From positions 1,671 to 65,670 of the forward strand of contig JBAQFA010000005.1 of the NCBI GenBank assembly GCA_049287025.1: 64,000 nt of DNA, in the 5' to 3' direction. Position 1 is the first letter of the stretch; each line of letters opens with the position of its first letter. Source of the stretch: Candidatus Magasanikiibacteriota bacterium (GTDB lineage Bacteria > Patescibacteriota > Patescibacteriia > Magasanikbacterales > UBA922). Made by a program: the position numbers and the translations under genes. Below, piece after piece: positions 37,836 to 54,200 of this stretch. A model generated the notes under the pieces. It worked only from the letters and a program-made list of their open reading frames with translations, did not search any database and was not told where the DNA came from.

Positions 37836-37866
37836 AAATCCCCTTAGTAGGGGATTTTATTTTTTA
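37836..37866. terminator. Bidirectional rho-independent terminator
   Basis: AAATCCCCT-tagt-AGGGGATTT followed by a T-run, with an A-run upstream. Confidence 0.55.
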
Positions 37867-39358: not shown

Positions 39359-39445
39359 AATGCTTAAAATGTTTGGAAATGCCAAAAATGCCGATGAGGC
39401 TTTTCAGGCCTTTCTAGCCTTTTCGGCTTTTCAGGCCTTTTATTA
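39359..39445. repeat. AGGCNTTT-type repeat array at the gene boundary
   Basis: aaatgccaaaaatgccgatgaggcttttcaggcctttctagccttttcggcttttcaggcctttt. Confidence 0.5.
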
Positions 39446-40966: not shown

Positions 40967-41575
40967 TTATTTTTTTACAGCTAATTCTGTTTTAACATAA
41001 AAATATATTTCACCATTATTTATAGTTTCATCAGTTAAAATTTTTTTCATTTCTTCAAGATCATGTGTGCTTTTTATTTTATCATTTTTTTCTAATGTTA
41101 ATGATAGATATTTCCATCCAAAGATTTTATCTCCATTATTAATTGCCCATCTGGCCATTTTTATATTTTCAGTCCATATACTATAAGTGCATGGTAAATC
41201 AGATTTAGTCTGATGATGTGTCATTATTTCTTTGGCTGCCTTATAAAGTATTGTTGTTTCATCGGGCATCTTTTGAGGTGAACCCAAGTTTGAAATTACG
41301 TGTGTTTTAAATTCTCCTGGACGTTCTGGCAAGGTTGCAAGCGTTAAGAATAATATTTTATTACCATAGGTAATTTTCCACGCAAGATTATTTTCATCGG
41401 TTATGTCCGGAGTATTTTCCCAACCCCCAAAGACATCCTCTCCTTTTATCTGTTTATAAGCGTCGTGGAGTGCTTTATTCATTTGTCTGTGAGATACGGT
41501 TTCTGCTCGCGAAACAATCTCCCTAATGATTTCATCTTCAGTCATTTGTTCTGATTTTGGTCCTGTATCACTCAT
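40967..41575 (-). CDS. Hypothetical protein, paralog A of a two-member family (202 aa)
   Basis: Shares MxDTGPKxEQ..E[ED]EII, KILFL[TS], IYKAAKE[IL]M, PC.Y and A.W....G..IF blocks with 42106-42717. Confidence 0.6.
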   Translation of the reverse strand: MSDTGPKSEQMTEDEIIREIVSRAETVSHRQMNKALHDAYKQIKGEDVFGGWENTPDITDENNLAWKITYGNKILFLTLATLPERPGEFKTHVISNLGSPQKMPDETTILYKAAKEIMTHHQTKSDLPCTYSIWTENIKMARWAINNGDKIFGWKYLSLTLEKNDKIKSTHDLEEMKKILTDETINNGEIYFYVKTELAVKK

Positions 41576-41587
41576 ATTTTTTTAAAA

Positions 41588-42094
41588 TTATAACTCTTTA
41601 AAAATTCTTTTACCATTTTTTCCTTTACCATAGCAGAGTAATATTTTTTCTTTTTCATTATAATGGGCGGATAAAACTTTGCCAATAAAAATAGTATGAT
41701 CACCAGCTTTTATTTTTTTGATTACTTCACATTCATAATTCAGAGTCGCTTCAGCTAGCAGAGGAGTCTTTAGAAATTTAGCTTTGGTAGTTTTTATTTT
41801 TGATAATTTAAATTTATCAATTTTATCACCATGATTTTCGCCAAAGATTGAGATTGCTTTTAACTGTTTTTTGTTTGGTACAGCCAAGACAAATTCTTTA
41901 CTTTGTTCAATTAGTTTTTTGGTGTTTTGGGTATTGTAAATAGATACAGCCATTAGTGGCGGTTCGTGCGAAACTTTCGTGTGCCAAGCGACAATCATAC
42001 CGCTTGGTTTGTTATTTTTGTCACACGATAAAACAAAAGCAAAATTGTATGGGATGTATTTTGTAAAAGCAGTGGAAATGTCTATTTGTTTCAT
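41588..42094 (-). CDS. Flavin reductase-like domain protein (FMN-binding split barrel)
   Basis: PSGMIVAWHTKVSHEPPLMAVSI ... GDHTIFIGKV pattern typical of the PF01613 flavin reductase domain, 168 aa. Confidence 0.7.
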   Translation of the reverse strand: MKQIDISTAFTKYIPYNFAFVLSCDKNNKPSGMIVAWHTKVSHEPPLMAVSIYNTQNTKKLIEQSKEFVLAVPNKKQLKAISIFGENHGDKIDKFKLSKIKTTKAKFLKTPLLAEATLNYECEVIKKIKAGDHTIFIGKVLSAHYNEKEKILLCYGKGKNGKRIFKEL

Positions 42095-42105
42095 ATTTAA
42101 AAATT

Positions 42106-42717
42106 TTAAATATCTGTACTTAGGGCTACAGCCAGATTGGAGTTTTCAATTTCTTCAGGATTGTTTATCAGTAAATCCAGCAGTTCAGCTTCAGAGATAT
42201 CAGATTCAGGTTTATTAGTGCGACCAATTTTTGTAACAATTTTGCAATTAGGAAAGATTTCTTTGCCTTTTGTTAATAACCAAATTGCCATTCTTGGGTC
42301 AGCCGTGATTTCTGCATATTTACAGGGTTTTTTGAAGGTTTCTTCTTTATATCTAATCATTAATTCTTTTGCCGCCTTATATATTGGTGTTGTTTCTGGT
42401 ATTCTTTCCTCAGCAGAATTAAAATCCGAATTATTTACAATGTGAGTAAAAAAACTTCCAGTTCCTTTTTCGATTTCATGAAATGATAAAAAAAGTATCT
42501 TACCCCGGTAAGACAGTCTCCAATTAGGCGCTACTTCTTTATCGTCTGAGTCAACAAATGTTGTTGCTTCTTCATATTCTTCGCCATAAATTTCCATATA
42601 TAATTTATTCAGTTCTTCAATTTTTTGTTTTTTAGAAATTCTAACAGCCCCAGCAATAATCTCTGCAATAATTTCCTCTTCTGATCTTTGTTCTGGTTTT
42701 GGTCCTGTGTCGTTCAT
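42106..42717 (-). CDS. Hypothetical protein, paralog B of a two-member family (203 aa)
   Basis: Colinear conserved blocks with 40967-41575 (see paralog A). Confidence 0.6.
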   Translation of the reverse strand: MNDTGPKPEQRSEEEIIAEIIAGAVRISKKQKIEELNKLYMEIYGEEYEEATTFVDSDDKEVAPNWRLSYRGKILFLSFHEIEKGTGSFFTHIVNNSDFNSAEERIPETTPIYKAAKELMIRYKEETFKKPCKYAEITADPRMAIWLLTKGKEIFPNCKIVTKIGRTNKPESDISEAELLDLLINNPEEIENSNLAVALSTDI

Positions 42718-42718
42718 A

Positions 42719-43393
42719 TTATTTTAAAATATTTTTTAATTCATCCAAATCGTCATTCCATTTTTCACCATCAAACCACTCTAGTCCGGCAAATTGTAAT
42801 TTGTATTTTGCTTTAGTATCTTTGGCAGAGCCGAGATAGACGAAACGTTTGTGGTTTGCTTGAGCGTGTAATATTGTTTTCAACATCATTCCCATTCCCA
42901 AATTAGGTGTTAGGTTTTGGGTGTTAGGTGTTAGGTCGTAGAAAGGGTAGGAGTAGTGTAATATATTTTTGTCTTCATAACAAATTGCATAACCGATTTT
43001 TAAATTTTCGATTTTCAATTTACAATTTTCAAACGTGTAAATGAATAATTTATTAAAATTGTGACTGGTAGTTAAAATTTCTTTTACTTTGTTAGCACTA
43101 AAAGTACCTTCACCAAACTTTGTTTGATAAAAATCTTTGGCAAGTTTTCCAATTGTCCAATCGTAATCTGCCATTGGTAAGGAGTAAGGAGTAAGGAGTA
43201 AGGAGTCTGTTTTTTTTAAAATACGTTTATTTTCGCTTGTCAGTTTAAATCTGTCTAAATCAATGCGAATACTACGCGTCTGATATATGTCACCTTTGCC
43301 GGTGCGAGTAAACAAAAAGCCCTCGTTGTAAAGAGAGTTGATATTTTCGTCAGAGAAATCAGAAATTGTTTTTTCAGACCATTTTAGGTACAT
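42719..43393 (-). CDS. Arginyl/leucyl-tRNA-protein transferase family protein (ATE/Bpt C-terminal domain-like)
   Basis: KIGYAICYEDKNILHYSYPFYDL and KRFVYLGSAKDTKAKYKLQFAGLEWFDGEKW match the Bpt/ATE_C pattern (LxGY...YxFYDP; YLGYwI..C.KM.YK..F.P.E.L...W). The N-terminal Cys motif is absent. Contains in-frame tandem repeats (LTPN, LLLTPYSLP). Confidence 0.5.
   Translation of the reverse strand: MYLKWSEKTISDFSDENINSLYNEGFLFTRTGKGDIYQTRSIRIDLDRFKLTSENKRILKKTDSLLLTPYSLPMADYDWTIGKLAKDFYQTKFGEGTFSANKVKEILTTSHNFNKLFIYTFENCKLKIENLKIGYAICYEDKNILHYSYPFYDLTPNTQNLTPNLGMGMMLKTILHAQANHKRFVYLGSAKDTKAKYKLQFAGLEWFDGEKWNDDLDELKNILK
42901..42938. repeat. In-frame GGTGTTAG-type tandem repeat inside the ATE-like gene
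   Basis: aattaggtgttaggttttgggtgttaggtgttaggtcg encodes DLTPNTQNLTPNLG. Confidence 0.5.
43177..43206. repeat. In-frame 7-bp tandem repeat (taaggag x4) inside the ATE-like gene
   Basis: ggtaaggagtaaggagtaaggagtaaggag, read as LLLTPYSLP on the minus strand. Confidence 0.5.
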
Positions 43394-43739: not shown

Positions 43740-44861
43740 TTAGTAAAGCGCTATCCACAACCCCAAAAGCACTACAGCTGAATGTATAATCCAAAAACGC
43801 ATCACAGTTTTTTCTTCGCTCCAGCCGATTAATTCAAAATGGTGATGGAGTGGTGCCATTTTAAAAATTCTTCTACCTAAGACATGTCGACCAATGACTT
43901 GAATAATAACGGTAGCTAATTCCAAATAAAATATAAAAGCGATAAAGGGGAGTAAGATCATTTTATTTATTACAATGGCATTGATAGCTAATAAAGCCCC
44001 TAGACCCAAAGAACCAACATCACCCATTTGAAAACGAGCGGGCTTAACATTAAAGTATGTATAAGTAATCAAAGCTCCGACAGTCGTAGCATTTAACAAA
44101 GTAATTTCTGGATAATTATTGACCCAGCTCAAAATCGTTAAAGTAGAAAAAGTAATAATCAGTGATCCGCCAGCTAAACCATCCATACCATCGGCAATAT
44201 TAACAGCATTGGCGGTAAACATAACAAATAAAATAATTAAAGGAATGATCCACCAGCCAATATTAACTAGACCATCAAACGGAATATTAATTTGTTGCCA
44301 TTGTTCGCCCAATTTAAAATAAATCCAATAAGCAGTAATGGCACCGGCTGCGAATTGCAATAATAATTTTTCGTGGACATGTACGCCTTTGCCTGGGTGA
44401 GAACCAAGCCAGAGTGAAGCGCGTTTGAAAATTGACCAAGGTAGGGTAATAATTAGCCACATGCGTTGTTTCCAATCAGCATGAACTTTGATTAAAGTGA
44501 AAATTTGTTTTAGTTTGCGGTGACGTCTTTCGTGGCCATAAATATGCATAACATCGTCAATACCACCAAGGAGAGCAGACAACAACATCACACCAATTGG
44601 TACCCAAGTAAATTTTCTCTCCCAATTAAAAAGCATCGTAATAACAGCCACGGTAATGATTACCAAAAGACCACCCATAATTGGGGTGCCAGCTTTTTTA
44701 TCAATATTTAGAGTAGAATCATATTCTGCTCTACGGGTAAGCTTGAAATGGTAAAGAATTTTGGTCAAAATTGGCGACCAGAGAAATGCTACAACACAAG
44801 AACCCAAACCATAAAAAATGGCTGTTTTTAGCAGATTTAATGATTCAATTGGTATATTCAT
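43740..44861 (-). CDS. mraY: Phospho-N-acetylmuramoyl-pentapeptide transferase
   Basis: NAVNIADGMDGLAGG and MAPLHHHFELIGWSEEKTVMRFWII signature motifs, 373 aa, ten TM helices. Confidence 0.9.
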   Translation of the reverse strand: MNIPIESLNLLKTAIFYGLGSCVVAFLWSPILTKILYHFKLTRRAEYDSTLNIDKKAGTPIMGGLLVIITVAVITMLFNWERKFTWVPIGVMLLSALLGGIDDVMHIYGHERRHRKLKQIFTLIKVHADWKQRMWLIITLPWSIFKRASLWLGSHPGKGVHVHEKLLLQFAAGAITAYWIYFKLGEQWQQINIPFDGLVNIGWWIIPLIILFVMFTANAVNIADGMDGLAGGSLIITFSTLTILSWVNNYPEITLLNATTVGALITYTYFNVKPARFQMGDVGSLGLGALLAINAIVINKMILLPFIAFIFYLELATVIIQVIGRHVLGRRIFKMAPLHHHFELIGWSEEKTVMRFWIIHSAVVLLGLWIALY

Positions 44862-44954: not shown

Positions 44955-45950
44955 ATGAACAAGAGTAAAAACAAAATTTATATTTTTGATTATTCACCAG
45001 AAGCTTTGGTAGAAAAAGAAGTCAAGACCATAGAAGAGTGTATTACTTACAAAGAATCACCTTCGGTCACTTGGGTAAATATTGATAAAGTGCCACCAGT
45101 TGATGATTTGGAACGTTTGAAAAAAGTTTTTAGTATTCACCCAGTAGTAGTAGATGATATTTTAAATATTAATCAAAGACCAAAGATTGAAATTTTGGAT
45201 GATTATATCTATGTAGTTTTAAAAATGCTGACTCTGAATAATAGTAGTAAAAAAGTAGAAAGTGAACAGGTGAGTATAGTAATTGCCAAAGATTTTGTTT
45301 TGACTTTTCAACAGGATATTGAAGGTGATACGTTTGCGAGTGTGAGAGACAGAATAAGAAATAAAACAAATAAAATAAGAGGCATGGGTACAGATTATTT
45401 GGCTTATAAGTTAATTGATTCAGTCGTGGACAATTATTTTAATGTATTGGAAGATTTTTCTGATCGTTTAGAAAAAATTGAACACCAGTTGATTAATAAT
45501 CCTAATAATAGCACTTTACAGGAAATGTATAATTTGAAAAGAGAAGTAATAAATTTACGTCGTTCAGTCTGGCCTTTGCGTGAAGTGATTTCGGCTTTGG
45601 AGCGTGATGATACTGCTTTGGTAAAAGATAATACTAGGATTTATTTGCGCGATGTGTATGACCATGTAATACAAATTATTGATACCATAGAAACTTATCG
45701 GGAAATGTTGTCAGGTATGGTGGATATTTATTTGTCTAGTGTGAGTAATAAAATGAACGCGGTCATGAAAGTTCTCACAATTATTGCTACGATTTTTATG
45801 CCTCTTACTTTTTTGGCGGGTGTATATGGGATGAATTTTAAACATATGCCAGAATTGAATTGGGTGTGGGGTTATCCTATGACTTGGTTGGTCATGATCA
45901 TAATAACAATTATAATGTTAGTTTTTTTTAAGAGAAAGAAATGGCTGTAA
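44955..45950 (+). CDS. corA: Magnesium/cobalt transporter CorA
   Basis: GVYGMNF signature before the two C-terminal TM helices, 331 aa. Confidence 0.9.
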   Translation: MNKSKNKIYIFDYSPEALVEKEVKTIEECITYKESPSVTWVNIDKVPPVDDLERLKKVFSIHPVVVDDILNINQRPKIEILDDYIYVVLKMLTLNNSSKKVESEQVSIVIAKDFVLTFQQDIEGDTFASVRDRIRNKTNKIRGMGTDYLAYKLIDSVVDNYFNVLEDFSDRLEKIEHQLINNPNNSTLQEMYNLKREVINLRRSVWPLREVISALERDDTALVKDNTRIYLRDVYDHVIQIIDTIETYREMLSGMVDIYLSSVSNKMNAVMKVLTIIATIFMPLTFLAGVYGMNFKHMPELNWVWGYPMTWLVMIIITIIMLVFFKRKKWL

Positions 45951-46015
45951 ATTAAGCTCAAAATAAAAAATCCAAATGACAATTCAAATACAAAATTAAT
46001 TGAAAATTGTAAACT

Positions 46016-46885
46016 ATGGTTAAGGTTGCTTGGTTTGGTATACACACTGGTGAAGAACCGCCTTTAATCCCTGCTGGGGGGATTTTTTTTACTGGGTGTA
46101 ATTTGCGGTGTGTGTTTTGTCAGAATTATCAAATTTCTCAAGAAAATTTGGGAAAATTTTACAGTATAGAAGAATTAGCCAACATAATGCTTGATTTGCA
46201 AACCCAGGGTGCGGTGAATATTGATTTAGTGACGCCGACGATTTGGTGGAAGCAAATTAAACCGGCCATAATTTTGGCGCGTGAAAGGGGACTAACTCTA
46301 TCAATCGTTTGGAATTCAAATGGCTTTGATAGCTTAGAAATTTTACAGGAGATGAAAGGTTTGGTAGATATTTATTTACCAGATTTTAAATACAGTGATG
46401 ATGAAATTGCTTTTAAATATTCTGGTATAAAAAATTATGTTGAGACTACTAAATTAGCAATCAAAGAAATGTTGGATCAAGTTAATTATTTACAAATTGA
46501 AAATGGTATTGCGACTAGGCCCGCCCGCCACGCAAGCCAGCCCCGCCTATCACAGCCTGGCACTGGCGAGCAGGTTGCTGGCGTTGCGGGCAGGGGATTA
46601 ATTGTTCGTCATATGGTTTTGCCCAATAATTTGGCTAATAGTTTTGGTGTATTGCAAATGTTATCGGAGATCGATAATAAAATTCATGTTAGTCTCATGA
46701 ACCAATATTTTCCTATGCATCATGCGAATGAATATCCAGAAATAAATAGAATTGTGAGCGATGTTGAATTTAATCAAGTTTATGATTATTTGCAAGAACT
46801 TGGATTTACAAATGGCTGGGTACAGGGTGAAAAGAGTCAACAATTTTTAATTCCAGATTTTAGAAAAGAAGAGCCATTTAATTGA
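46016..46885 (+). CDS. Radical SAM protein (PflA-like / AmmeMemoRadiSam-type activating enzyme)
   Basis: GCNLRCVFCQNYQIS CxxxCxxC cluster in the PflA-like context. Carries a GC-rich in-frame insertion at 46516-46600. Confidence 0.7.
   Translation: MVKVAWFGIHTGEEPPLIPAGGIFFTGCNLRCVFCQNYQISQENLGKFYSIEELANIMLDLQTQGAVNIDLVTPTIWWKQIKPAIILARERGLTLSIVWNSNGFDSLEILQEMKGLVDIYLPDFKYSDDEIAFKYSGIKNYVETTKLAIKEMLDQVNYLQIENGIATRPARHASQPRLSQPGTGEQVAGVAGRGLIVRHMVLPNNLANSFGVLQMLSEIDNKIHVSLMNQYFPMHHANEYPEINRIVSDVEFNQVYDYLQELGFTNGWVQGEKSQQFLIPDFRKEEPFN
46516..46600. repeat. GC-rich inverted-repeat insertion, in-frame in the radical SAM gene
   Basis: GGCCCGCCCGCCACGCAAGCC ... GGCGTTGCGGGCAGGGG arms (GCCCGCCACGC / GCGTTGCGGGC). 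Encodes RPARHASQPRLSQPGTGEQVAGVAGRG. ~70% GC. Confidence 0.5.
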
Positions 46886-46892
46886 ATTTTTT

Positions 46893-48155
46893 ATGGAACA
46901 ATACGATGTCATAATTATTGGCGCGGGATTTTCTGGTCTTACTTTAGCTCATCATCTACCGCATGATTTGCGGGTTTTGGTTTTGGATAGAAAACAAGCC
47001 TTGAATAGTGTGATGGAAACTACTGGCTTAATCACCCAAGCGACAAAGGATCTAATTAGCGAATTTGTAGATATAGAAAATTATTTGCCCAATCATATTG
47101 ATACGATTGGTGTGGTGTCGCCAGATTATGATAAATATTTTTTTTCTCACACCACAGATCCTTGGATTTATTCGACTGACACACCAGAATTGGTAAAACA
47201 TTTAGCCGATGCAGTACCAAATAATGTAGACATAAAAATTGGTCAGACTCTAGTTGATTATAAGATTGATAATAGTTCTGAATATCCAGTTCTGGTAGAG
47301 TATGCAAATAATGGAACAAAAAGTTTATCCCAGACAAAATTTTTAGTGGGGGCAGATGGGGGTAATTCCACAGTGGCAAAATTAAATGATAAATTATCAA
47401 AAAATACTAAATTTTTAATTGGTTTTGAAAAAGTGTTTTTTGGCGATATAACTTTTGGTCCGAAGCCTAATAGTACAGTTTATCATTTTTGGTTTGGGGA
47501 ATTTTCACTTGGTTATGGCGGGTGGTTGTCGCCAACTGTGATTGATAATAAATCAGCTTTTCGGCTTGGTCTAGCTAAATTGGAAAAAGACAAGGCTAAT
47601 TTAAAAAAGCTGGATGATTTTATAAATATTTTACAGGAAAAAAAGATTATAAAAATTGATTCAGAAAATATTCAGCCAGTAATTTCTTTTGGTAATAAAA
47701 TTCCGATTGGCGGAGTTTTGCCAAATTTAACAGCTGACAGAGTAATGTTAATAGGGGATGCGGGTGGTTTTTGTGGAGCGTTTGCGGCCGATGGTATCAA
47801 GGGGGCAGTCTTGTCAGGAAAAACTAGCGCCAAATTAATCACAAAATATTTGCAAGGGGATAAAGATTGTTTAAAATCTTATATTTCAGAAATGCAAAAA
47901 AATAATAAAATTATTTATTATTACAGAAAACAATTACTTTATAGATGGTTATGGAATCTAATGAAAACTAATAATAGTTTTATGAATTTGTATCGATTGA
48001 TTGAAAGACAAAAAGATGATTTTCTTAATCAATTTTGTGATAGCAAGGACAAAAGAAAAAGTTTGTTTCGCGTGCTTTTAAAATTTAAAAACATACCTTT
48101 GTTATTTAGGTATGCTTTTTCATTGTTGTTTGATTTGTTTAGACCAAGGCCTTAA
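46893..48155 (+). CDS. FAD-dependent oxidoreductase (geranylgeranyl reductase-like family)
   Basis: YDVIIIGAGFSGLTLA dinucleotide-binding motif, GADG and GDAGG motifs, 420 aa. Confidence 0.8.
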   Translation: MEQYDVIIIGAGFSGLTLAHHLPHDLRVLVLDRKQALNSVMETTGLITQATKDLISEFVDIENYLPNHIDTIGVVSPDYDKYFFSHTTDPWIYSTDTPELVKHLADAVPNNVDIKIGQTLVDYKIDNSSEYPVLVEYANNGTKSLSQTKFLVGADGGNSTVAKLNDKLSKNTKFLIGFEKVFFGDITFGPKPNSTVYHFWFGEFSLGYGGWLSPTVIDNKSAFRLGLAKLEKDKANLKKLDDFINILQEKKIIKIDSENIQPVISFGNKIPIGGVLPNLTADRVMLIGDAGGFCGAFAADGIKGAVLSGKTSAKLITKYLQGDKDCLKSYISEMQKNNKIIYYYRKQLLYRWLWNLMKTNNSFMNLYRLIERQKDDFLNQFCDSKDKRKSLFRVLLKFKNIPLLFRYAFSLLFDLFRPRP

Positions 48156-49005
48156 GTCTTCTTATAAAAATTTCTTTAGCTTTCTTCGCATATTCCTGCA
48201 TTTGTGGTTCTGACCAGTTTTGTTCTAATAGATTTTTATTTGGATCAGTAATAGTGATTGTTTCTTGTCTCACGCCGTGGTTATAAAGACCATCAGTAGG
48301 ATATTGAAATGAATGGGTGTATTCAATCACAATTCCGAACCCCGAGGGTGAGGAATCCCTTTTTTGTGTATTAAAAGTTGTATTACTATTTACATTGTTT
48401 GAAGAGTTGGAAAGGGATCCACCCTTACGGGTATCTTCGACCTCGTTGCGACTCGGGATTACCGAAGAAACCAATAATACATGATTATAATCTTGTTTTG
48501 GACCAGCACCCATCATAACAATTAGATCTCCAGGCTGGATATCTTTTAGATTTATTTCTTTAGAATTTATATTATTATTAAAAGTGGAGACACCAGTATT
48601 TTCGGCTGATCTAAATTGAGAAATTAATTTGCGAATGGGATTTTTTATCCATGGCCGGTGAATATATTTTTTTAGTCCGCCTAAATTTCTGGCTTTCAAT
48701 TCTGTATCTAATACATGATAAATTAGACCAGAACAATCAATCCCTAGATTGTGTTCAATTAAAAATTTTTTTATTTGTTCGGCATTTAATTCGGCTAGTT
48801 TTATTTTTTCGCGTAAAGAAAAGATCGTGGCTTCTTCCGCAATATCTTCTGGGCTACCTTTGCCAATCAAGACGCGCAAAGCTCCACGAATATTTTTTCT
48901 CCGATTATTAAAATAGGGAGTAGTTATGTTTTTTTCTCCTATTTTGAGATTAAGGTATTGATCAATAACTTTTTGTGCTTGTGAGGATAATTGTTCCATT
49001 GTCAT
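48139..49005 (-). CDS. NlpC/P60-like (papain-fold C40 peptidase/amidase-like) cytoplasmic protein
   Basis: LGIDCSGLIYHVL resembles the catalytic Cys motif DCSGLV of C40 peptidases, with downstream His. No signal peptide. Carries the palindromic element at 48333-48468 in-frame. Confidence 0.5.
   Translation of the reverse strand: MTMEQLSSQAQKVIDQYLNLKIGEKNITTPYFNNRRKNIRGALRVLIGKGSPEDIAEEATIFSLREKIKLAELNAEQIKKFLIEHNLGIDCSGLIYHVLDTELKARNLGGLKKYIHRPWIKNPIRKLISQFRSAENTGVSTFNNNINSKEINLKDIQPGDLIVMMGAGPKQDYNHVLLVSSVIPSRNEVEDTRKGGSLSNSSNNVNSNTTFNTQKRDSSPSGFGIVIEYTHSFQYPTDGLYNHGVRQETITITDPNKNLLEQNWSEPQMQEYAKKAKEIFIRRLKALV
48333..48468. repeat. Palindromic miniature element copy inserted in-frame in the NlpC/P60-like gene
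   Basis: TTCCGAACCCCGAGGGTGAGGAATCCCTTTTTT-(AT-rich core)-GGAAAGGGATCCACCCTTACGGGTATCTTCGACCTCGTTGCGACTCGGGATTACCGAAG. Encodes GGSLSNSSNNVNSNTTFNTQKRDSSPSGFG. Confidence 0.65.
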
Positions 49006-49009
49006 ATTG

Positions 49010-50962
49010 TTATTTGTTTGATGTTTTATTCAAAATTTTTTCTGTCAGACCTTTTGGTAATAATGTTATGTTTGGCAATTCTTTTAGATCTACCCAGACT
49101 AGCTTGTAAGAATTATTAGTAGTGCTTCTCTCTCTTTCTTCGTCACCTAGCTTTGGTTCACCAGAAATATTCTCCGCAAAATAATAATATTCGTCACGGC
49201 CATTAATATTAAAACAAAGTGGTATTTGTTCAGGAATAGTAAAATCAAGATCAGTTTCTTCTTTGCCTTCACGTTTGGCTGTGGCTAATATATTTTCATC
49301 AAAATCTTCTTTGGTTCCACCAGGTGGAGTGAAAAAATGCTGGGAAAATTTTTGTCTTTCTATTAATAAAATTTTGCCGTCTTTAATAGGTAAAATAGCA
49401 CCTCGGGGCAAGTCCCAACCCACACCTTTTTGGGTGACAGTAATAAAGTCAATTATTTTTAAACCATTGAGACTTAATTTATTATGCGCTTCCATAATAG
49501 GATAAAGAGTTTGCGTGCGCATCAGGTCAGCATTTGGTTTGGTATTATTGTATTTTATAATATTGAAATCAGGTCGTTTGTTGTATTTTGGTTCGTGAAG
49601 TGAAGGAATTTCTTTGGTAACTCGTTGAATAATTTGCGCGCCATCTTGGATTTTGATTAATGTTTGATTTTCCAAATTTATATCTAATAACGCCATGAGG
49701 TGGGATTCGAATGTGGTTATTTGGTTTGTCATCCCGAATCCCCCGACGAAGGGGGTGAGGGATCCCTTGTCTTTGGATTTAAACATTGTATTATTACTAA
49801 TTCCATTGTTTAATGTTTGGGAAAGGGATCCCCTCCTCGGAGGATCTTCGACCTCGCCCTGTGTCGGGCTCGGGATGACAAGTGATTGAAGTTGTGATTC
49901 GTAAGTCGTTGATGCTGGTTGTCTGGCATTAATTTCAATTAAATATAGTTTGCCATTTTTTCCCGCCTTCGCTGAAGCTTCGGCGGACAAGTCATCAACC
50001 ACAACATCAACTCCAAACAAACCTTTCCAACCTTGTGATCTTAATTTTTCGCCAATATCATTTACAATTTTGTTGTATTGTTTTATTTGATCTTCATTTA
50101 AATATTTATTAGCAAATGACCAATCATTGCCAATGGTAGTAAATTTATTATCAGTAAAAGGTTTGAGTCCAGTAATTTGATAGCTAATATTACCAACTAA
50201 AATTTTATTTTTTGTGACGACATTGTTGCTAGTAAACATTGGTCCAGAAATATATTCCGTGATTCTAACTGGGCGATCGGGAAATTTTTCTTTAATCTCA
50301 TCCAGCTGACTCTCTGATTCAATCAAAATAGTGCCAAGGCCAGTATGAGCGCGGTTGAATTGGATAATAAAAGGCTTACAAAGCTCACGAGGCTTGCTAC
50401 CTGCCTGCGCAGGCAGGGGCTCACAAGGCCAAACGATATTTTTACATAAATCAACTCTGTGTTTAGGTAAATATTTTTGTAATTCCCCAAGCCATTCTAG
50501 TCCAGAGATTTTTTCTTCTATTTTGTTTGACAGTTCGGCTGGTGGGTTGAGTAGTTTCCAATTATTTTCCTGACAGATTTTTTCTATTTGAGTGGTGGGT
50601 TTGAAGACTACCACGGTAAGTTCATTCCGATCCGCCGATGAGGTGGAGAGGAATCTTTCGGAGTTATTTGTTGTTGTGGTATGATTGTCTTTTGTAATTT
50701 GTTTGTAAAAGGCTTCGAAAGATCCCTCGTCAGTCAGTCGTCTGACTTCCTCGGGATGAACCAACAATTCTAACAATTCCCAAGTATCCAGCTGTTCATT
50801 ACTTTCAATCAAAAGGACATTATCATATCCTTCAGCTACAGACTTGGCAAAAGGCGTAGAATTTGAGATAATATGATAACCTGGGGTATTTAAATTCAGC
50901 CCTAAAGCCCGCTCAATATCGCGGGTGACGTAAATGATTGGGTTTTGGGTTAGATCTATCAT
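49010..50962 (-). CDS. ATP-grasp (RimK-like) ligase fused to a C-terminal NUDIX hydrolase domain
   Basis: ATP-grasp blocks PFIIQFNRAHTGLGTILI and GLFGVDVVVDD...GKLYLIEINARQPAS. C-terminal Nudix box GGTKEDFDENILATAKREGKEETDL. The likely start is MIDLTQNP at 50962, since the track ORF to 51049 overlaps the divergent gene. Carries three in-frame palindromic insertions. Confidence 0.7.
   Translation of the reverse strand: MIDLTQNPIIYVTRDIERALGLNLNTPGYHIISNSTPFAKSVAEGYDNVLLIESNEQLDTWELLELLVHPEEVRRLTDEGSFEAFYKQITKDNHTTTTNNSERFLSTSSADRNELTVVVFKPTTQIEKICQENNWKLLNPPAELSNKIEEKISGLEWLGELQKYLPKHRVDLCKNIVWPCEPLPAQAGSKPRELCKPFIIQFNRAHTGLGTILIESESQLDEIKEKFPDRPVRITEYISGPMFTSNNVVTKNKILVGNISYQITGLKPFTDNKFTTIGNDWSFANKYLNEDQIKQYNKIVNDIGEKLRSQGWKGLFGVDVVVDDLSAEASAKAGKNGKLYLIEINARQPASTTYESQLQSLVIPSPTQGEVEDPPRRGSLSQTLNNGISNNTMFKSKDKGSLTPFVGGFGMTNQITTFESHLMALLDINLENQTLIKIQDGAQIIQRVTKEIPSLHEPKYNKRPDFNIIKYNNTKPNADLMRTQTLYPIMEAHNKLSLNGLKIIDFITVTQKGVGWDLPRGAILPIKDGKILLIERQKFSQHFFTPPGGTKEDFDENILATAKREGKEETDLDFTIPEQIPLCFNINGRDEYYYFAENISGEPKLGDEERERSTTNNSYKLVWVDLKELPNITLLPKGLTEKILNKTSNK
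49728..49879. repeat. Palindromic miniature element, best-preserved copy with perfect 10-bp outer inverted repeats, in-frame in the ATP-grasp-NUDIX gene
   Basis: GTCATCCCGAATCCCCCGACGAAGGGGGTGAGGGATCCC-(AT-rich core)-GGGAAAGGGATCCCCTCCTCGGAGGATCTTCGACCTCGCCCTGTGTCGGGCTCGGGATGAC. Encodes EVEDPPRRGSLSQTLNNGISNNTMFKSKDKGSLTPFVGGFG. Confidence 0.7.
50388..50440. repeat. Short GC palindrome (CCTGCCTGC|GCAGGCAGG) inserted in-frame in the ATP-grasp-NUDIX gene
   Basis: GCTCACGAGGCTTGCTACCTGCCTGCGCAGGCAGGGGCTCACAAGGCC. Encodes LPAQAGSKPREL. The core is shared with the 35658-35680 palindrome. Confidence 0.5.
50626..50758. repeat. Palindromic miniature element copy inserted in-frame near the 5' end of the ATP-grasp-NUDIX gene
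   Basis: TCCGATCCGCCGATGAGGTGGAGAGGAATCTTTCGG-(AT-rich core)-CGAAAGATCCCTCGTCAGTCAGTCGTCTGACTTCCTCGGGATGAA. Confidence 0.6.
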
Positions 50963-50994
50963 AGTGAGGGTAATTATACTTAAAAAAATAGTTT

Positions 50995-53250
50995 TTGACA
51001 AGCAATATGGACAGTATGGATTTGAAAAAACACGATAGAGTTGATTCATATCAAATTGAGTTAGAATTAGCTTTTTCTGTTTGGTATCAGGGAGTAAAAA
51101 CTGGACGTAAAGATTTTGGAGTAGGCTGGCTAAAGAAAAATGGATTTAATAATCTTGCTGTCTGGTGTGAAGAAAATAGTGAACAGTTTGTTGAATGGAA
51201 AGTCTTAAGAGAGCTAAAAGAGGCTTTTTTGGTTTGGCATTCTTTGCCAGAAGCAGGCCGTGGTAATTTTAATGCGACTTGGTTGCAACAAAATGGATTT
51301 TCTCGTGTAGATAAAGGGCTGCGCAAGTTAGATGGTGTTGAAGTTGTCCAAAAAAGTGATTCAGCGGAATTAAGAAAAGCTTACACTGTCGACAAGGTTG
51401 ACTGGACAGAGGAATCAGCCGTAAAAAAAATGGATGAAATGTATGAAGTTTTTTTGAAGGAAAAAGATAATAAATTTGATAAAAAAGGAAAACCAATACG
51501 CTTCAATAGATATTGGCTTAAATCAAAAGGTTTACCATCATTGGTAAGGTGGGCAAATACGCAGCCGGGTGGTTTGGAAGTATTGAACACCAAGTGTAGA
51601 AACAAAGAAGTTGCTAATTTATTTGAAAGAAGTAGGACGGAGTGGAATGAGACTTTGGCAGTTGCTGATTTAGAAGTTGCTTATAAAGAATGGCTGGACG
51701 AGCCGGCGGATACGCGAGGCAATTTTAATCAAAAAAGGATACAAAGAAAACATTCAGGACTGACAAGTTGGGTCTGGGATAATGGCGGAATTGATAAGTA
51801 TGTTGCTTTATCAAAAAATGATTCTTTAAGGGCTGCATTTTCAAAAGATAGAATATTTTGGGATGATAAAAGAGTTTTAGCTGAATTAGATAAAGCCTTT
51901 GAAAAATGGAAGTCGGTTGTAGAGGTGGATGGTAGAACTGGTAAACAAAGGAAATTTAGTGCTTTTTGGATTCGAGATAATTATAATCAAGGTTTAAGCA
52001 GATGGATTAGTATGCACAGTGGATTGAATCATTGTGTTGCTTTAAGTACTAATCAAGAATTAAGAAAATATTTAAATTTAGATAACCAAGTTGTCACAAC
52101 TGTGACTGTTGAAGGCTTGGTAGATAAACCAGAAGAGGTTGAAGAAAAAACCAATGAACCAGGAGAAATTCATGTTGGAGTTTTTCCTAGTGAAATGATT
52201 GATCTTTCGGGTATTGGTTCCAATTTACTTCCTCAAATAAGGGTTGCGAGTCTTCAGGAAAGGGAAGATAGAGGATCAACAGATGTTGATTTGTCACAAA
52301 TGACAGCTGATCCAAATCCGTTACAGAAATTACGTTTTGATATGGCTACAGCCAGACAAAGTGGTGTCTGGGATGATGAATTAATAAAAAGATATATAGA
52401 ATTGCATTCTTATTTGCCAGATTTTATTTTTCACGGTCTTAGCGTAGAACATATTGTGGAATTAGCCACAGCTGGCAAGATAAAAACCCCAAAGGCTGTT
52501 TTGTCCGTCGGTGGAGGGGCTTATGGGGAATTAATAGCTTGGCAAAGAAAATTAAAAGCAGAGGCGCCAATGGTTTTTAATTTGGACAGTTCTGCATTAA
52601 TGTTGGAAATGGCTAAGCCTGTTTTATCCGAGAAATATAGTATTCAGCAAAACGATTTTAATGGCGTGGTAGGTGATATGAGAAATTTTAAGGGTGATTA
52701 TTTGAGTAATTTTAAACAGGGTGATTTTGATTTAATAGAATGTTCAGCGTTAGACAATTTAACTGAAGCACAATTGCCAAAATTTGTTGAAGAAATAGTT
52801 GATGTTTTACAAAATGGACAAATGGTACAGTTGATTGCCAGAAAGCCAATACCAAATGCTGTTTGGCACATTTTGGAAACTATGGGTTGTGTGATACTAA
52901 CTCCACCAAATGCCAAATTAGATGCAGATCTTAGCGGTGTAGTAGGTGGGGATGTAAAAAAGAGAATTAAACAAAAGTTGCGAGATGGGGGCGGGTTTTA
53001 TTTATTGGCGCAAAAATTTGAAAAAACAATTAATCCAGATGATAATAAGAAAAGGTTTTTAGATCAATTATCGCAAGCACAAGATATGGAGACCGGAGAT
53101 CTTGGTTTGTTATTATTAGATTTAGCAAAATTGTATCCAAATTATGGCGATATTCCAGAGGAAGAATTGGCAAGAGTTGGATTTCGGCGAGAAATTATTA
53201 AAGTGAATAAAAAAGGTGCAAGTAACATAGTACGAATTGTCAAAGTTTAA
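50995..53250 (+). CDS. Large hypothetical protein with five or more ~50-aa N-terminal tandem repeats and a C-terminal class I methyltransferase-like region
   Basis: Repeats of the form hxxAhxxW...G[RK]xxF...xWL..NGF...L..W. The C-terminal region has VLSVGGGAYG (motif I-like), NLDSS and DLIECSALDNL. 751 aa. Confidence 0.55.
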   Translation: MTSNMDSMDLKKHDRVDSYQIELELAFSVWYQGVKTGRKDFGVGWLKKNGFNNLAVWCEENSEQFVEWKVLRELKEAFLVWHSLPEAGRGNFNATWLQQNGFSRVDKGLRKLDGVEVVQKSDSAELRKAYTVDKVDWTEESAVKKMDEMYEVFLKEKDNKFDKKGKPIRFNRYWLKSKGLPSLVRWANTQPGGLEVLNTKCRNKEVANLFERSRTEWNETLAVADLEVAYKEWLDEPADTRGNFNQKRIQRKHSGLTSWVWDNGGIDKYVALSKNDSLRAAFSKDRIFWDDKRVLAELDKAFEKWKSVVEVDGRTGKQRKFSAFWIRDNYNQGLSRWISMHSGLNHCVALSTNQELRKYLNLDNQVVTTVTVEGLVDKPEEVEEKTNEPGEIHVGVFPSEMIDLSGIGSNLLPQIRVASLQEREDRGSTDVDLSQMTADPNPLQKLRFDMATARQSGVWDDELIKRYIELHSYLPDFIFHGLSVEHIVELATAGKIKTPKAVLSVGGGAYGELIAWQRKLKAEAPMVFNLDSSALMLEMAKPVLSEKYSIQQNDFNGVVGDMRNFKGDYLSNFKQGDFDLIECSALDNLTEAQLPKFVEEIVDVLQNGQMVQLIARKPIPNAVWHILETMGCVILTPPNAKLDADLSGVVGGDVKKRIKQKLRDGGGFYLLAQKFEKTINPDDNKKRFLDQLSQAQDMETGDLGLLLLDLAKLYPNYGDIPEEELARVGFRREIIKVNKKGASNIVRIVKV

Positions 53251-53255
53251 TATTT

Positions 53256-54200
53256 ATGAGTGAATTATATCAACAACTAAAAGAATTTGGCCATGTCAAA
53301 CTAAATGAACCAATGTCCAAGCACACAACCTTCAAAATTGGTGGTAAGGCTAATTTTTTTATTACAATTGAAAATACAGATAATTTGGGTAAACTTTTAA
53401 CCTTTGTGAATGAGCAGGGTTTATCTTATTTTATTTTAGGTGGAGGATCAAATCTGCTGTGGAATGATGACCAATTTGAAGGAGTGGTAATAAAAGTGGG
53501 TAATAAAAAATTAACTGTGACTGGAAATATGATTGAAGCCGACGCTGGTGTTCTCTTGTCCCAAGTAGTCAATTTGGCAGCGCAAAATAGTTTAACTGGT
53601 TTTGAATGGGCCGTGGGGATCCCTGGAACAATTGGTGGAGCAGTGCGAGGCAATGCTGGAGCGATGGGCGTGGATATTTCGGCTGATAAATGTCTAGCAA
53701 AAGTTCAAGTGTGGCAAAATGGTGAAGTAGTGGAATATAATAGAAGTGAATGCAATTTTGTTTATCGAGGGAGCATGTTTAAAGATGATCCTAATATATT
53801 GGTTTTGCGGGCATATTTTAGGCTTGATGTGGGAGATCAAGCAGAGATAATGAAATCAATGCAAGGTTATTTGGCTCAACGCACTGGACGGTATCCAAAA
53901 TTTCCTTCAGCTGGTAGTTTTTTTCAAAATGTTCCAATTGATAAATGGAAAAAAGATTTAAAAGATTTACCAGCCATTTTTGTGGAGCGCAAAAAAATTC
54001 CCGTTGGTTGGCTCGTGGAACAATTAGAATTAAAAGGTTTGACTGTAGGTGGCGCCAAAGTGTCTGATGAACATGGTAATTTTATTATTAATTTTGATAA
54101 TGCATTACAGTCTGATGTCTTGACTTTAGTTGAATTAGTAAAAGAAAAAGTGTATAATAAATTTGGAATAGAATTGGAGAGTGAAGTGGAAATAGTGTAA
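53256..54200 (+). CDS. murB: UDP-N-acetylenolpyruvoylglucosamine reductase
   Basis: FKIGG.A, ILGGGSNLLW FAD-binding motif, GIPGTIGGAVRGNAGAMG and a C-terminal MurB domain, 314 aa. Confidence 0.9.
   Translation: MSELYQQLKEFGHVKLNEPMSKHTTFKIGGKANFFITIENTDNLGKLLTFVNEQGLSYFILGGGSNLLWNDDQFEGVVIKVGNKKLTVTGNMIEADAGVLLSQVVNLAAQNSLTGFEWAVGIPGTIGGAVRGNAGAMGVDISADKCLAKVQVWQNGEVVEYNRSECNFVYRGSMFKDDPNILVLRAYFRLDVGDQAEIMKSMQGYLAQRTGRYPKFPSAGSFFQNVPIDKWKKDLKDLPAIFVERKKIPVGWLVEQLELKGLTVGGAKVSDEHGNFIINFDNALQSDVLTLVELVKEKVYNKFGIELESEVEIV

Follow-up and report, generated by a model that had tools for sequence, protein, structure and literature searches.

A coupled ATP-grasp ligase and NlpC/P60-type enzyme encoded among peptidoglycan-precursor genes of Magasanikbacteria: a candidate precursor-modifying pair

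Genes A and B and the enzymes they encode

The stretch of DNA analysed here (64 kb, hereafter the window), from a tiny uncultured bacterium of the Candidatus Magasanikbacteria, contains two colinear minus-strand genes, A and B, in which the TAA stop codon of A and the ATG of the downstream gene B are separated by only 4 nt (caat). This is in agreement with the first-pass annotation, which had placed two ORFs here, 4 bp apart, and all the motifs that it quoted are present in the translations. The genes, the domains encoded by gene A and the region upstream of it are as follows.

49010-50962, minus strand: gene A, 650 aa, ATP-grasp ligase with a C-terminal Nudix hydrolase domain (ORF, Pfam, AF2, Foldseek, homologues)
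50543-50962, minus strand: gene A, aa 1-140, pre-ATP-grasp (Rossmann-like) N-domain (secondary structure, Foldseek, alignment)
49433-50542, minus strand: gene A, aa 141-510, ATP-grasp central and C-terminal domains and C-terminal subdomain (invariant alignment columns, Pfam)
49010-49432, minus strand: gene A, aa 511-650 plus stop codon, Nudix domain (Pfam NUDIX, PDB profile search)
50973-51001, minus strand: best promoter-like site, TTGTCA-17-TATAAT, directly 5' of the gene A ATG
48139-49005, minus strand: gene B, 288 aa, NlpC/P60-superfamily Cys-His-His enzyme (ORF, Pfam, AF2)

The raw ORF of gene A extends to position 51049. The coordinates 49010-50962 hold with a start at MIDLTQ, which is backed by homologues that begin at the equivalent residue in the alignment, and NCBI protein P0001 is identical to the 650-aa product. 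The promoter-like site upstream of the ATG (11/12 matches) ends 11 nt before the start at 50962, a position that would imply a very short or absent leader. Since the total number of such sites in the region is not above that of shuffled sequence, this site constitutes weak evidence.

All canonical ATP-grasp motifs are present in gene A as invariant columns of two family alignments. They are VFK (K121), EEK (149-151), the glycine-rich loop HTGxGT (206-211), E-Y-I-x-G, D319 and E343-x-N345-x-R347. When the AF2 model of gene A (pLDDT 85.5) was compared with solved structures by Foldseek, it matched PurK, biotin carboxylase, PurT and L-amino-acid ligases with E values of 4e-12 to 1e-9; the match to PurK (E = 4e-12, probability 1.0) gave alignments of ~530 columns and target-normalised TM-scores of 0.62-0.70. 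Pfam ATP-grasp_3 scored 21 bits on the window copy, slightly below the gathering score of 23.2, and was matched in 20/24 insert-free relatives. A profile search against PDB sequences gave no significant match to solved ATP-grasp sequences, and gene A has no Pfam match to RimK or Dala_Dala_lig. These results bear out the ATP-grasp core recognized in the first-pass annotation but not its classification as RimK/LysX-type: the HMM match of gene A is to ATP-grasp_3 (PylC-type), and its fold resembles those of PurK and biotin carboxylase. Likewise, what had been taken for an unassigned N-terminal domain of ~170 aa corresponds to a normal pre-ATP-grasp N-domain, with alternating beta-alpha-beta secondary structure in the AF2 model, plus a lineage-specific insert of ~48 aa. 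By motifs and fold, gene A encodes a complete three-domain ATP-grasp carboxylate-amine ligase with its ATP- and Mg-binding motifs all intact.

The C-terminal domain of gene A scored 34.9 bits with Pfam NUDIX, above the gathering score of 21.1, and matched MutT-like Nudix proteins in the PDB profile search, as had been proposed. Its Nudix box reads GGTKEDFDE-NILATAK-REGKEETDL, with R564, E565, E568 and E569 as invariant residues, and the RE..EE catalytic residues are kept in 27/27 fused forms. A 1-aa insertion in the loop of the box typifies the clade of the window copy. The fusion of a Nudix domain to the ligase is optional: it is found in 30/85 related loci, and the domain, which is fused in only about one third of relatives, is not supported as a defining element.

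Gene B consists of a family-specific N-terminal domain (aa 1-85) and a catalytic domain (aa 86-288). Cys91 and His175 are conserved in 152/152 family sequences and His231 in 148/152. Pfam NLPC_P60 scored 21 bits on the window copy, under the gathering score of 23, and was matched in 30/36 family members; LytE and Spr match gene B at the motif level. In the AF2 model (pLDDT 87.5), Cys91 is the first residue of helix 91-105, while the two His residues lie on consecutive strands. Foldseek gave no significant match to solved NlpC/P60 structures (best E ~0.9), the best of these non-significant matches being to the CHAP amidase domain of the E. coli glutathionylspermidine synthetase/amidase. Gene B encodes a divergent papain-like (NlpC/P60) Cys-His-His enzyme. 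This enzyme is cytoplasmic: its N-terminus lacks a hydrophobic segment, and some relatives carry it joined to the ligase, itself a cytoplasmic protein. Class and location both agree with the initial reading.

In-frame insertions had also been reported in both genes, and alignments indeed delineate five segments, listed below, that are missing from all homologues. The DNA patches encoding them have 50-58% GC, compared with a background of ~35%, and the residues have low pLDDT, below 50, in the AF2 models. A palindrome, CGCTGAAGCTTCGGCG, is present at 49970-49985 within gene A, which also contains an inverted repeat (50648-50663 / 50713-50728).

50624-50767, minus strand: gene A, aa 66-113, the ~48-aa lineage-specific insert inside the N-domain
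50375-50422, minus strand: gene A, aa 181-196
49961-49999, minus strand: gene A, aa 322-334
49721-49879, minus strand: gene A, aa 362-414, its largest GC-rich insert (alignment, GC, pLDDT)
48337-48456, minus strand: gene B, aa 184-223

Coupling of A and B and their genomic neighbourhood

Genes A and B are translationally coupled or fused. B follows A in 87/88 testable related loci, the two genes overlap or are at most 20 nt apart in 53/75 unfused loci, and they form one polypeptide in 7/82 loci and in 25 of the 150 family representatives (50% identity). The first-pass annotation had proposed an operon and had named lack of conservation of the pair in relatives as the outcome that would speak against its proposal; the pair proved to be strongly conserved. 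All source names given for A and B homologues are Magasanikbacteria, Parcubacteria or Patescibacteria.

The pair is part of a conserved cluster in which murB is located upstream on the opposite strand and A and B are followed by mraY, a gene for an ATE/Fem-like transferase and one for a murC/mpl-like ligase. The corresponding genes in the window, together with those that flank them, are:

53256-54200, plus strand: murB, UDP-N-acetylmuramate dehydrogenase (NCBIfam PRK13905, 271 bits, above the cut-off of 259)
43740-44861, minus strand: mraY, phospho-MurNAc-pentapeptide translocase (TIGR00445, 187 bits, cut-off 192, versus 38 bits for WecA)
42719-43393, minus strand: putative ATE/Bpt-like (Fem-related GNAT-fold) aminoacyl-tRNA transferase, 224 aa (Pfam ATE_C, weak; NCBIfam arginyltransferase, E = 5e-10)
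39414-40943, minus strand: MurC/Mpl-like Mur ligase, 509 aa (all three Mur_ligase Pfam domains; TIGR01081 mpl 231.7 bits and TIGR01082 murC 223.6 bits, both under their cut-offs)
37857-38417, minus strand: stand-alone NudE/MutT-like Nudix hydrolase, 186 aa, a variable member of the cluster (Pfam NUDIX, 45 bits)
37608-37772, plus strand: LysW-like zinc-ribbon protein, 54 aa (Zn_ribbon_LysW, E = 3.3e-5, under the gathering score; TIGR01206, E = 1.7e-4)
36553-37461, minus strand: PLP-dependent (PALP, threonine-synthase-like) enzyme (Pfam PALP, 104 bits; NCBIfam threonine synthase models, all below cut-off)

murB is located within 3.5 kb upstream of A in 70/74 loci, and mraY within 7 kb downstream of B in 47/53, being absent from that interval in the other 6/53. 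Among 85 loci, the ATE-like gene is found in 58, the Mur ligase in 54, the PALP enzyme in 46 and the stand-alone Nudix gene in 15. In the window, a gene for a 751-aa protein stands between murB and A, and three plus-strand genes (CorA, radical SAM and FAD oxidoreductase; 44955-48155) part B from mraY. The A-B-mraY order is kept in the most distant relatives examined (L086 and L088); a further distant locus (L090) has A-B, one inserted gene and then mraY-ftsW, and L087, likewise distant, has the same gene set in another order (ATE, Mur ligase, zinc ribbon, PALP, A, B, mraY). In L055, A-B is located upstream of, and on the opposite strand to, mraZ-rsmH, called by reading the sequences and not by HMM. 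In L018 and L036, cell-wall genes are missing over a distance of 10 kb. The gene of an unrelated ribosome hibernation factor adjoins murB inside the conserved block, so that part of the synteny may simply reflect a gene order inherited in a small genome.

A candidate role in peptidoglycan-precursor chemistry and its alternatives

The context of murB, mraY, murC/mpl-like and ATE/Fem-like genes, with ftsW or mraZ-rsmH once each, points to peptidoglycan-precursor chemistry rather than to tagging. Because A and B travel with cell-wall-precursor genes, they probably add and remove a piece of a cell-wall precursor, and not protein tags; the peptide or protein tagging through an ADP-ribosylated or nucleotidylated intermediate that had been suggested for the pair found no specific support. 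The peptidoglycan precursor is a probable target by association with neighbouring genes, no substrate-specific family having been matched. In its full form, our proposal is that A and B constitute a Magasanikbacteria-specific ligase/amidase module, often one bifunctional protein, of the cytoplasmic peptidoglycan-precursor (UDP-MurNAc-peptide) pathway, and we give it about an even chance of being correct.

A precedent for gene A is the ATP-grasp D-aspartate ligase that decorates UDP-MurNAc-pentapeptide. More generally, ATP-grasp ligases produce D-Ala-D-Ala and those peptidoglycan branches that consist of D-amino acids; branches of L-amino acids are the work of Fem/ATE-type GNAT-fold ligases (PMC2922099). 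In our proposal, A would activate a carboxylate with ATP as an acyl-phosphate, be it the carboxylate of the stem peptide of UDP-MurNAc-peptide (the MraY substrate) or that of an incoming amino acid, and would then join it to an amine; the resulting stem peptide or branch would be modified or extended. B would cut the same or a neighbouring amide bond via a Cys91 thioester and could thereby serve control, editing or salvage, much like the amidase of the glutathionylspermidine synthetase/amidase pair. Where present, the Nudix domain may bind the UDP-diphosphate linkage of this precursor or cleave it, which would clear wrong or surplus precursor or recover UMP.

Several observations point against a precursor role: A folds nearest to PurK, biotin carboxylase and PurT, not Ddl, and matches no solved ATP-grasp by sequence; B has no significant Foldseek match to a solved NlpC/P60 structure; the conserved block includes an unrelated gene; 6/53 loci lack a nearby mraY, and L018 and L036 any nearby cell-wall gene; insert genes part A-B from both murB and mraY in the window; and two thirds of relatives do without the Nudix domain.

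The same gene order can also be read as a non-orthologous replacement of Ddl and/or MurF, which we consider unlikely. Here A would make the terminal dipeptide, or add the terminal residue(s) to UDP-MurNAc-tripeptide, and B would be a specificity-enforcing peptidase, after the model of VanA paired with VanX. In the canonical dcw order murF precedes mraY and ddl often lies beside murB/murC; A-B, immediately 5' of mraY and near murB and murC, thus occupies the place of murF and a frequent site of ddl. Neither the 64-kb window nor the 10-kb flanks of A in 85 loci yielded a canonical Ddl, and an E. coli DdlB query gave only weak matches, which fell inside A (E = 0.05-0.24) or within a YheCD-like accessory ATP-grasp protein. 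However, the sequence searched for ddl and murF covers neighbourhoods only (the window plus ~1.4 Mb of related loci), A is nearer to PurK and L-amino-acid ligases than to Ddl, and a dipeptide synthetase would work to no purpose with a fused peptidase cleaving its product, except where the two differ in specificity.

Alternatively, A could load an amino acid onto the acidic tail or C-terminus of the zinc ribbon, as LysX does on LysW, after which the PLP enzyme would modify the tethered amino acid and B would release the product, which may feed the Mur ligase. We regard this reading as quite improbable. LysX is an ATP-grasp enzyme and the LysW system requires a release amidase, and the ribbon, brought forward in the first-pass annotation as a candidate carrier, is indeed present and conserved in the wider neighbourhood. 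It matches both LysW models, is syntenic in 47 loci and has an invariant C-terminal AE(I/V)xDEGK (...AEIVDEGK in the window copy; a distant copy ends EIVETEK); the source names given for the 120 listed of 179 homologues are all Magasanikbacteria or Patescibacteria, much as those of A and B. The ribbon does not, however, track A-B. It is encoded on the opposite strand, always between the murC-like or Nudix gene and its conserved partner, the PLP enzyme, and where the cluster is split in relatives its place is beside the genes of the murC-like ligase and the PLP enzyme, away from A-B (L018, L036, L065, L075, L084, L088 and L090). Its C-terminal residue is Lys, not the Glu acceptor of the EDWGE of LysW, A is not RimK/LysX-type, and no homologues of LysZ, LysY, LysJ or LysK were found in the neighbourhood.

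Least probable, in our view, is a control pair for a small molecule outside the cell wall (a thiol, polyamine or amino-acid conjugate, or protein tagging with a nucleotidylated intermediate) with inherited mur synteny: glutathionylspermidine synthetase/amidase (GspSA) has the same domain pair, A-B persists without peptidoglycan neighbours in L018 and L036 and the conserved block also holds unrelated genes, but the A-B-mraY adjacency survives rearrangements and is kept in the most divergent members, no thiol or polyamine metabolism genes were seen nearby, and PADLOC defence models gave no match.

Comparison with known systems

The closest solved folds for A are PurK, biotin carboxylase, PurT and the L-amino-acid ligases (examples are 3vot, LdmS 7r8q, BesA 8yi6 and PylC 4ffr), with which A shares the E-x-N-x-R motif of this branch. 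Sequence identity is only 8-16%, however, and A has family-specific motifs, namely an N-terminal TRDxERA as well as GNDW and RQPAS. For B, the comparison is with cytoplasmic murein-peptide amidases of the NlpC/P60 type such as B. subtilis YkfC, Cys-His-His enzymes that act on stem-peptide amide bonds. B shares the (G)DCSG, PGD...H and H-S motifs, but differs in having its unique 85-aa N-terminal domain where SH3b domains would be and in the long insertion that separates its Cys helix from the His strand, besides its score below the Pfam threshold and its non-significant structural matches.

Aslfm (D-aspartate ligase) and Ddl are ATP-grasp amide ligases acting on or for UDP-MurNAc-peptide precursors and encoded near mur genes (PMC2922099; textbook), and A is similarly placed beside murB, mraY and murC. 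Unlike A, neither is known to have a papain-like amidase or a Nudix domain as a partner or fused part, and A has no significant similarity to Ddl (E. coli DdlB sequence, E = 0.05 or worse) and no Dala_Dala_lig match. In the LysW/LysX system, as here, a single neighbourhood encodes a small zinc ribbon whose C-terminal tail is acidic, along with an amide hydrolase and a ligase of the ATP-grasp class; it differs in its EDWGE tail (DEGK here), in the type of its ligase and in its LysZ/LysY/LysJ/LysK enzymes, and the ribbon here is linked to the murC-like and PLP genes instead of A-B.

GspSA (E. coli Gss) differs from A-B in that its amidase comes first, whereas the ligase is first in A-B, and in its metabolic context, which is thiol/polyamine metabolism and not peptidoglycan-precursor synthesis. 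In addition, A and B belong to neither the GSP_synth nor the CHAP family (Pfam), A folding like PurK/biotin carboxylase, and a Nudix domain is added in about one third of the related A-B loci examined. The architecture of A-B nevertheless resembles that of GspSA: in both, an ATP-dependent amide synthetase of ATP-grasp-like type is combined with a cytoplasmic Cys amidase of papain-like type (in GspSA a CHAP domain, of the NlpC/P60 clan), structures of the Gsp amidase are the top, though weak and non-significant, Foldseek matches of B, and GspSA is a single polypeptide, as are the fused representatives of the A-B family.

Coupling of genes A and B

The GC content of the window is about 35%, and its nearest proteins are identical or near-identical ones from MAGs of Candidatus Magasanikbacteria (CPR/Patescibacteria). 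The first-pass annotation had described two colinear minus-strand genes. Reading of the ORFs confirmed both, at the following positions, and all the motifs quoted for them were found in the translations.

49010-50962 (raw ORF up to 51049), minus strand: gene A, predicted ATP-grasp ligase with a C-terminal Nudix domain, 650 aa
48139-49005, minus strand: gene B, putative NlpC/P60-type Cys-His-His enzyme, 288 aa

As annotated, 4 nt separate the TAA of gene A from the ATG of gene B. The start of gene A at position 50962 agrees with the equivalent first residue in homologues and with an identical 650-aa NCBI protein (P0001). The best promoter-like site of the region ends 11 nt upstream of this start, which is weak support because such sites are no commoner here than in shuffled sequence.

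Screening one genome per GTDB species gave 417 stretches related to gene A; the best 80 were taken with 10-kb flanks, and ten further loci were added via protein look-ups. Gene B follows gene A in 87 of the 88 testable loci, showing that the pair is conserved in relatives. The two genes overlap or are at most 20 nt apart in 53 of 75 unfused loci, and they form a single, frame-checked ORF in 7/82 loci. When 1.84 billion cluster representatives were searched exhaustively with a profile, 382 A-family members (clusters at 50% identity) scored below E = 1e-30; the best 150 divide into 120 proteins consisting of A alone, 25 in which A is fused to B and 5 in which it is fused to a Nudix domain. Both catalytic motif sets are kept in the three A-B fusion sequences inspected at full length, and the catalytic residues of B in 27/27 fusion proteins of the alignment. 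The A-B fusions are strong, gene-fusion-type evidence for a shared pathway or substrate of ligase and Cys enzyme.

Two related loci with murB beside a fused A-Nudix gene and B (L031 and L037) lie on different contigs of one bin, assembly CAYZGX01; this could reflect a real duplication or strain heterogeneity within the bin. Public annotation of the family is limited to "NUDIX domain-containing", "ATP-grasp domain-containing", "hypothetical" or "C40 family peptidase", and our literature search found no paper on the A-B module, nor anything specific on the ddl/mur content of CPR.

Domains, catalytic motifs and in-frame insertions

An AlphaFold (AF2) model of protein A based on 34 sequences (pLDDT 85.5) displays the three domains of an ATP-grasp fold, i.e. 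a pre-ATP-grasp N-domain, a central domain and a C-domain. In Foldseek searches the model matched PurK, biotin carboxylase, PurT, L-amino-acid ligases, LdmS, BesA and PylC with E = 4e-12 to 1e-9. The alignments to PurK, biotin carboxylase and PurT span ~530 columns at probability 1.0, indicating that A is a complete three-domain ATP-grasp protein. The ATP/Mg motifs VFK (K121), EEK (E150-K151) and HTGxGT (206-211) are invariant or nearly so in two alignments of A relatives (A1 and A3), as are EYIxG (E-Y-I-S-G in the window), D319 and E343-x-N345-x-R347. The Pfam model ATP-grasp_3 scores just below threshold on the window protein and matches 20 of 24 relatives that do not contain the insertions of the window described below. 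Among named models NCBIfam PRK06524 is nearest (partial match, E = 5.9e-13), and single-sequence and profile searches of PDB sequences gave nothing significant for the ATP-grasp part. The predicted fold and the ATP/Mg-binding motifs thus place A in the ATP-grasp superfamily.

Two earlier statements on this protein did not hold. It had been assigned to the RimK/LysX type, but RimK HMMs matched neither the window protein (E up to 1) nor the 24 relatives (E up to 0.01), and the top 50 Foldseek matches contain no RimK or LysX; we therefore reject this assignment in favor of an ATP-grasp_3, PurK-like one. In addition, the "unassigned ~170-aa N-terminal domain" corresponds, according to the alignment, the AF2 model and Foldseek, to a normal pre-ATP-grasp domain carrying a 48-aa insert.

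The C-terminal Nudix domain was borne out by a PF00293 match of 34.9 bits, above the gathering score (aa 551-660 in the numbering of the 679-aa ORF). It is a small MutT-like unit whose PDB sequence matches are limited to generic MutT-like Nudix proteins and reveal no specificity motif. Residues R564, E565, E568 and E569 of the Nudix box are invariant in 27/27 fused forms. Compared with the consensus box GX5EX7REUXEEXGU, the clade of the window has a 1-aa insertion (G-x6-E), a Gly at a U position and an Asp at the final G. By fold and box the domain is a member of the Nudix hydrolase family, with hydrolysis as its predicted activity. The fusion is optional, being present in 30 of the first 85 related loci.

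Protein B had been annotated as an NlpC/P60-type enzyme that lacks a signal peptide. The latter is correct; of the former, the catalytic layout stood, whereas similarity to solved structures did not. In the model (pLDDT 87.5) the layout is papain-like: Cys91 (GIDCSG) opens a helix (91-105), and His175 and His231 lie on strands 173-185 and 224-233. Cys91 and His175 are each conserved in 152/152 sequences, fusions and distant relatives among them, and His231 in 148/152, the exceptions having N or Q (three) or a gap (one). The motifs DCSG and PGDL...H line up with those of LytE and Spr, in agreement with this catalytic register, and hhalign of the B profile to an approximate E. coli Spr sequence gave a weak, supportive local match of 29 columns around PGDL. 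NLPC_P60 scored a borderline 21.0 bits on window B, against a gathering score of 23, and matched 30/36 B-family members at E <=0.01 (best 9.8e-6). For a few members the clan relatives CHAP and Amidase_6 match as well (CHAP at E <=0.01 in 4/36), and some homologues have a precomputed PF00877 match. Foldseek returned no significant match of B to solved structures, its top matches at E about 1 being the CHAP amidase domain of E. coli glutathionylspermidine synthetase/amidase, and PDB sequence searches with the single sequence and the profile gave nothing significant. The N-terminal 85 aa form a family-specific, strongly conserved domain (PYFNNRR...GKG...EE). We regard B as a divergent NlpC/P60-clan protein.

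The in-frame insertions noted previously in both genes were verified by homologue alignments, GC content and models. No homologue contains the following five segments:

50624-50767: insert in gene A, aa 66-113
50375-50422: insert in gene A, aa 181-196
49961-49999: insert in gene A, aa 322-334
49721-49879: insert in gene A, aa 362-414
48337-48456: insert in gene B, aa 184-223

Their GC content is 0.50-0.58, against a background of ~0.35, and their pLDDT is low. They fall within surface loops and do not disrupt any catalytic motif. Two of the five contain short palindromes or inverted repeats, e.g. CGCTGAAGCTTCGGCG at 49970-49985, and these GC-rich inserts recall the in-frame Rickettsia palindromic elements. 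A similar-looking segment, RPARHASQPRLSQPGTGEQVAGVAGRG, occurs in a radical-SAM ORF (within 46016-46885).

The A-B pair in the mur/dcw cluster

The gene neighbourhood of A-B is the principal new result. In relatives, a gene for a hibernation factor and murB are followed, in the opposite direction, by A, B, mraY, a gene for an ATE/Bpt-like GNAT-fold transferase (ATE-like, a putative aminoacyl-tRNA transferase) and a murC/mpl-like Mur ligase gene. Next come a stand-alone Nudix gene (in some), a LysW-like zinc-ribbon gene in reverse orientation and a PLP-enzyme gene. The window contains the same set, broken up by inserted genes:

53256-54200: murB
43740-44861: mraY
42719-43393: ATE-like transferase
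39414-40943: Mur ligase (murC/mpl-like)
37857-38417: stand-alone Nudix
37608-37772, plus strand: LysW-like zinc ribbon
36553-37461: PLP enzyme (PALP)

The inserted genes are a 751-aa gene between A and murB, genes for CorA, a radical-SAM protein and an FAD oxidoreductase between B and mraY, and, further along the cluster, a pair of paralogues and a flavin reductase gene.

In 70/74 related loci murB lies no more than 3.5 kb upstream of A, and in 47/53 mraY lies no more than 7 kb downstream of B. Locus L087 keeps the whole set in a rearranged order (ATE, Mur ligase, zinc ribbon, PALP, A, B, mraY). In the most divergent relatives studied, mraY comes after an A-B fusion in L086 and after A-B in L088, and one inserted gene separates A-B from mraY-ftsW in L090; in L055 A-B is located upstream of opposite-strand mraZ-rsmH (named by sequence reading). 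Exceptions are L018 and L036, without a nearby cell-wall gene, and L065, L075 and L084, which have kept murB and not mraY. The linkage survives both divergence and rearrangement; A-B thus belongs to a conserved mur/dcw peptidoglycan-precursor cluster. None of the proteins A, B, zinc ribbon and ATE-like transferase matched an anti-phage defence model of PADLOC, and no structured RNAs or tRNAs were found within the window.

Several other features of these regions were observed. In loci without adjacent mraY, A-B is adjoined by a ~170-aa gene (L018 3751-4263; L036 8809-9327, minus strand; L065 12090-12593; L075 11981-12487) whose product, by sequence inspection alone, resembles a membrane-anchored SAM methyltransferase, with GxGxG after a putative transmembrane helix. 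The 751-aa ORF (50995-53250, plus strand) carries ~45-aa repeats in its N-terminal part (...W(L/I)..NG(F/L)...) and a class-I methyltransferase domain in its C-terminal part, and has no counterpart in any of 85 related loci. The paralogues (42106-42717 and 40967-41575, minus strand; ~200 aa each, both opening with M(N/S)DTGPK.EQ) flank the flavin reductase gene (41588-42094, minus strand) in a trio that interrupts the cluster between its ATE-like and murC-like genes; the members of the trio are rare, unk202 occurring in 3/85 related loci and unk203 and the flavin reductase in 1/85 each. The interval between the ATE-like gene and the murC-like one in L076 (13886-14800, plus strand), and also in L010 (around 7849-7914), contains an accessory 304-aa YheC/D-like ATP-grasp gene; its normally C-terminal Mg-binding motif GIDFMVDKNGKVYFIEANSVPG is at the N-terminus, so that the domain appears circularly permuted. 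In the window, a second, weak MurB-like ORF (21592-22620, plus strand; FAD_binding_4 E = 7.6e-9, MurB_C E = 5.9e-4) is present in addition to the bona fide murB, and the 1257-aa leucyl-tRNA synthetase (9257-13030, plus strand) has Abhydrolase_1 and Ser_hydrolase matches (alpha/beta-hydrolase type) at ~aa 468-835, between the editing and anticodon-binding domains.

Proposed role and comparison with known systems

CPR/Patescibacteria have very limited biosynthesis, and to our knowledge nobody has determined their wall chemistry. D-Ala-D-Ala and D-amino-acid branches on UDP-MurNAc-pentapeptide are made by ATP-grasp ligases, and L-amino-acid branches by Fem/ATE-type GNAT-fold enzymes (PMC2922099). 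The A-B cluster holds one ATP-grasp ligase and one ATE-type GNAT-fold enzyme. Folds, motifs, coupling, fusions and synteny are the direct results for A-B, and from these we infer a substrate and step directions: as the reading with the best support, we give about even chances to A-B being a lineage-specific ligase/amidase module that acts at the Park-nucleotide stage, on UDP-MurNAc-peptide. Protein A would make an amide bond via an acyl-phosphate; hydrolysis of that or a related bond by B would serve control, editing or salvage. Where present, the fused Nudix domain may target the UDP-diphosphate linkage within the same UDP-MurNAc-peptide.

A replacement of Ddl and/or MurF by A-B seems unlikely to us. 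It is favored by the location of A-B in the murF position upstream of mraY, and by the finding that in the window and 85 loci, these neighbourhoods only, no canonical Ddl was detected (approximate E. coli DdlB sequence as query; Pfam scans, for most of the larger window ORFs elsewhere). Protein A itself gave no Pfam or NCBIfam Ddl match, nor did Ddl models match among the 24 relatives, and the approximate DdlB query gave only E = 0.05-0.24, over the ATP-grasp core. Such a replacement would mean that a pathway otherwise universal, and a target of antibiotics, has undergone non-orthologous displacement.

The zinc-ribbon protein had been proposed as a LysW-like carrier candidate. It proved to be a genuine conserved neighbour: the 54-aa protein has an invariant C-terminus, ...AE(I/V)(I/V)DEGK, in 47 related loci, which speaks for a LysW-type carrier system. 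PF21344 scores 23.9 bits on it (gathering score 27) and TIGR01206 21.4 bits (cut-off 53.2); its homologues have the CPxC...CxxC motif and, for the most part, a precomputed PF21344 match. However, the tail ends in Lys and not in the Glu of EDWGE (a distant copy, L087 2274-2462, minus strand, ends in EIVETEK), no LysZ, LysY, LysJ or LysK homologues were found in the window, and A is not LysX-like. The terminal Lys suggests a different carrier or adaptor chemistry. Moreover, the gene lies on the strand opposite to A-B, always upstream of an opposite-strand, threonine-synthase-like PLP enzyme gene and convergent with a murC-like or Nudix gene, and it parts from A-B when the cluster splits. A carrier system including A-B is improbable. 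Distinctly improbable, too, is a small-molecule or protein-tagging ligase/amidase that has nothing to do with the cell wall and has inherited its synteny.

A further reading is a long shot: in Magasanikbacteria the bifunctional ATP-grasp/papain-like enzyme may build or decorate the distal stem peptide, replacing or adding to MurF/Ddl or the known branch ligases, with the LysW-like zinc ribbon and the PLP enzyme supplying an unusual carrier-bound amino acid. If true, cell-wall synthesis would for the first time be found linked to a pathway of the amino-group-carrier type, and a major CPR group would have a non-canonical wall chemistry.

As for the proposed Park-nucleotide-stage module, A-B is lineage-specific, strictly conserved, often encodes ligase and amidase in one polypeptide and is located beside mraY. 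These properties make it a clonable candidate for a new step of peptidoglycan-precursor synthesis, editing or salvage, and the natural forms (A alone, A-Nudix, A-B) provide a guide set for biochemistry.

The fold of A is similar to those of PurK and L-amino-acid ligases, and the genomic context of A-B to that of Ddl and D-aspartate ligase. Like glutathionylspermidine synthetase/amidase, A-B couples a predicted ATP-dependent amide synthetase to a papain-like amidase, often in one fused protein. A has no GSP_synth match and window B matches CHAP only at E = 0.065; A-B does not belong to that family and the resemblance is architectural only. In A-B, the pairing of synthetase and amidase familiar from glutathionylspermidine metabolism would recur in the setting of the cell wall.
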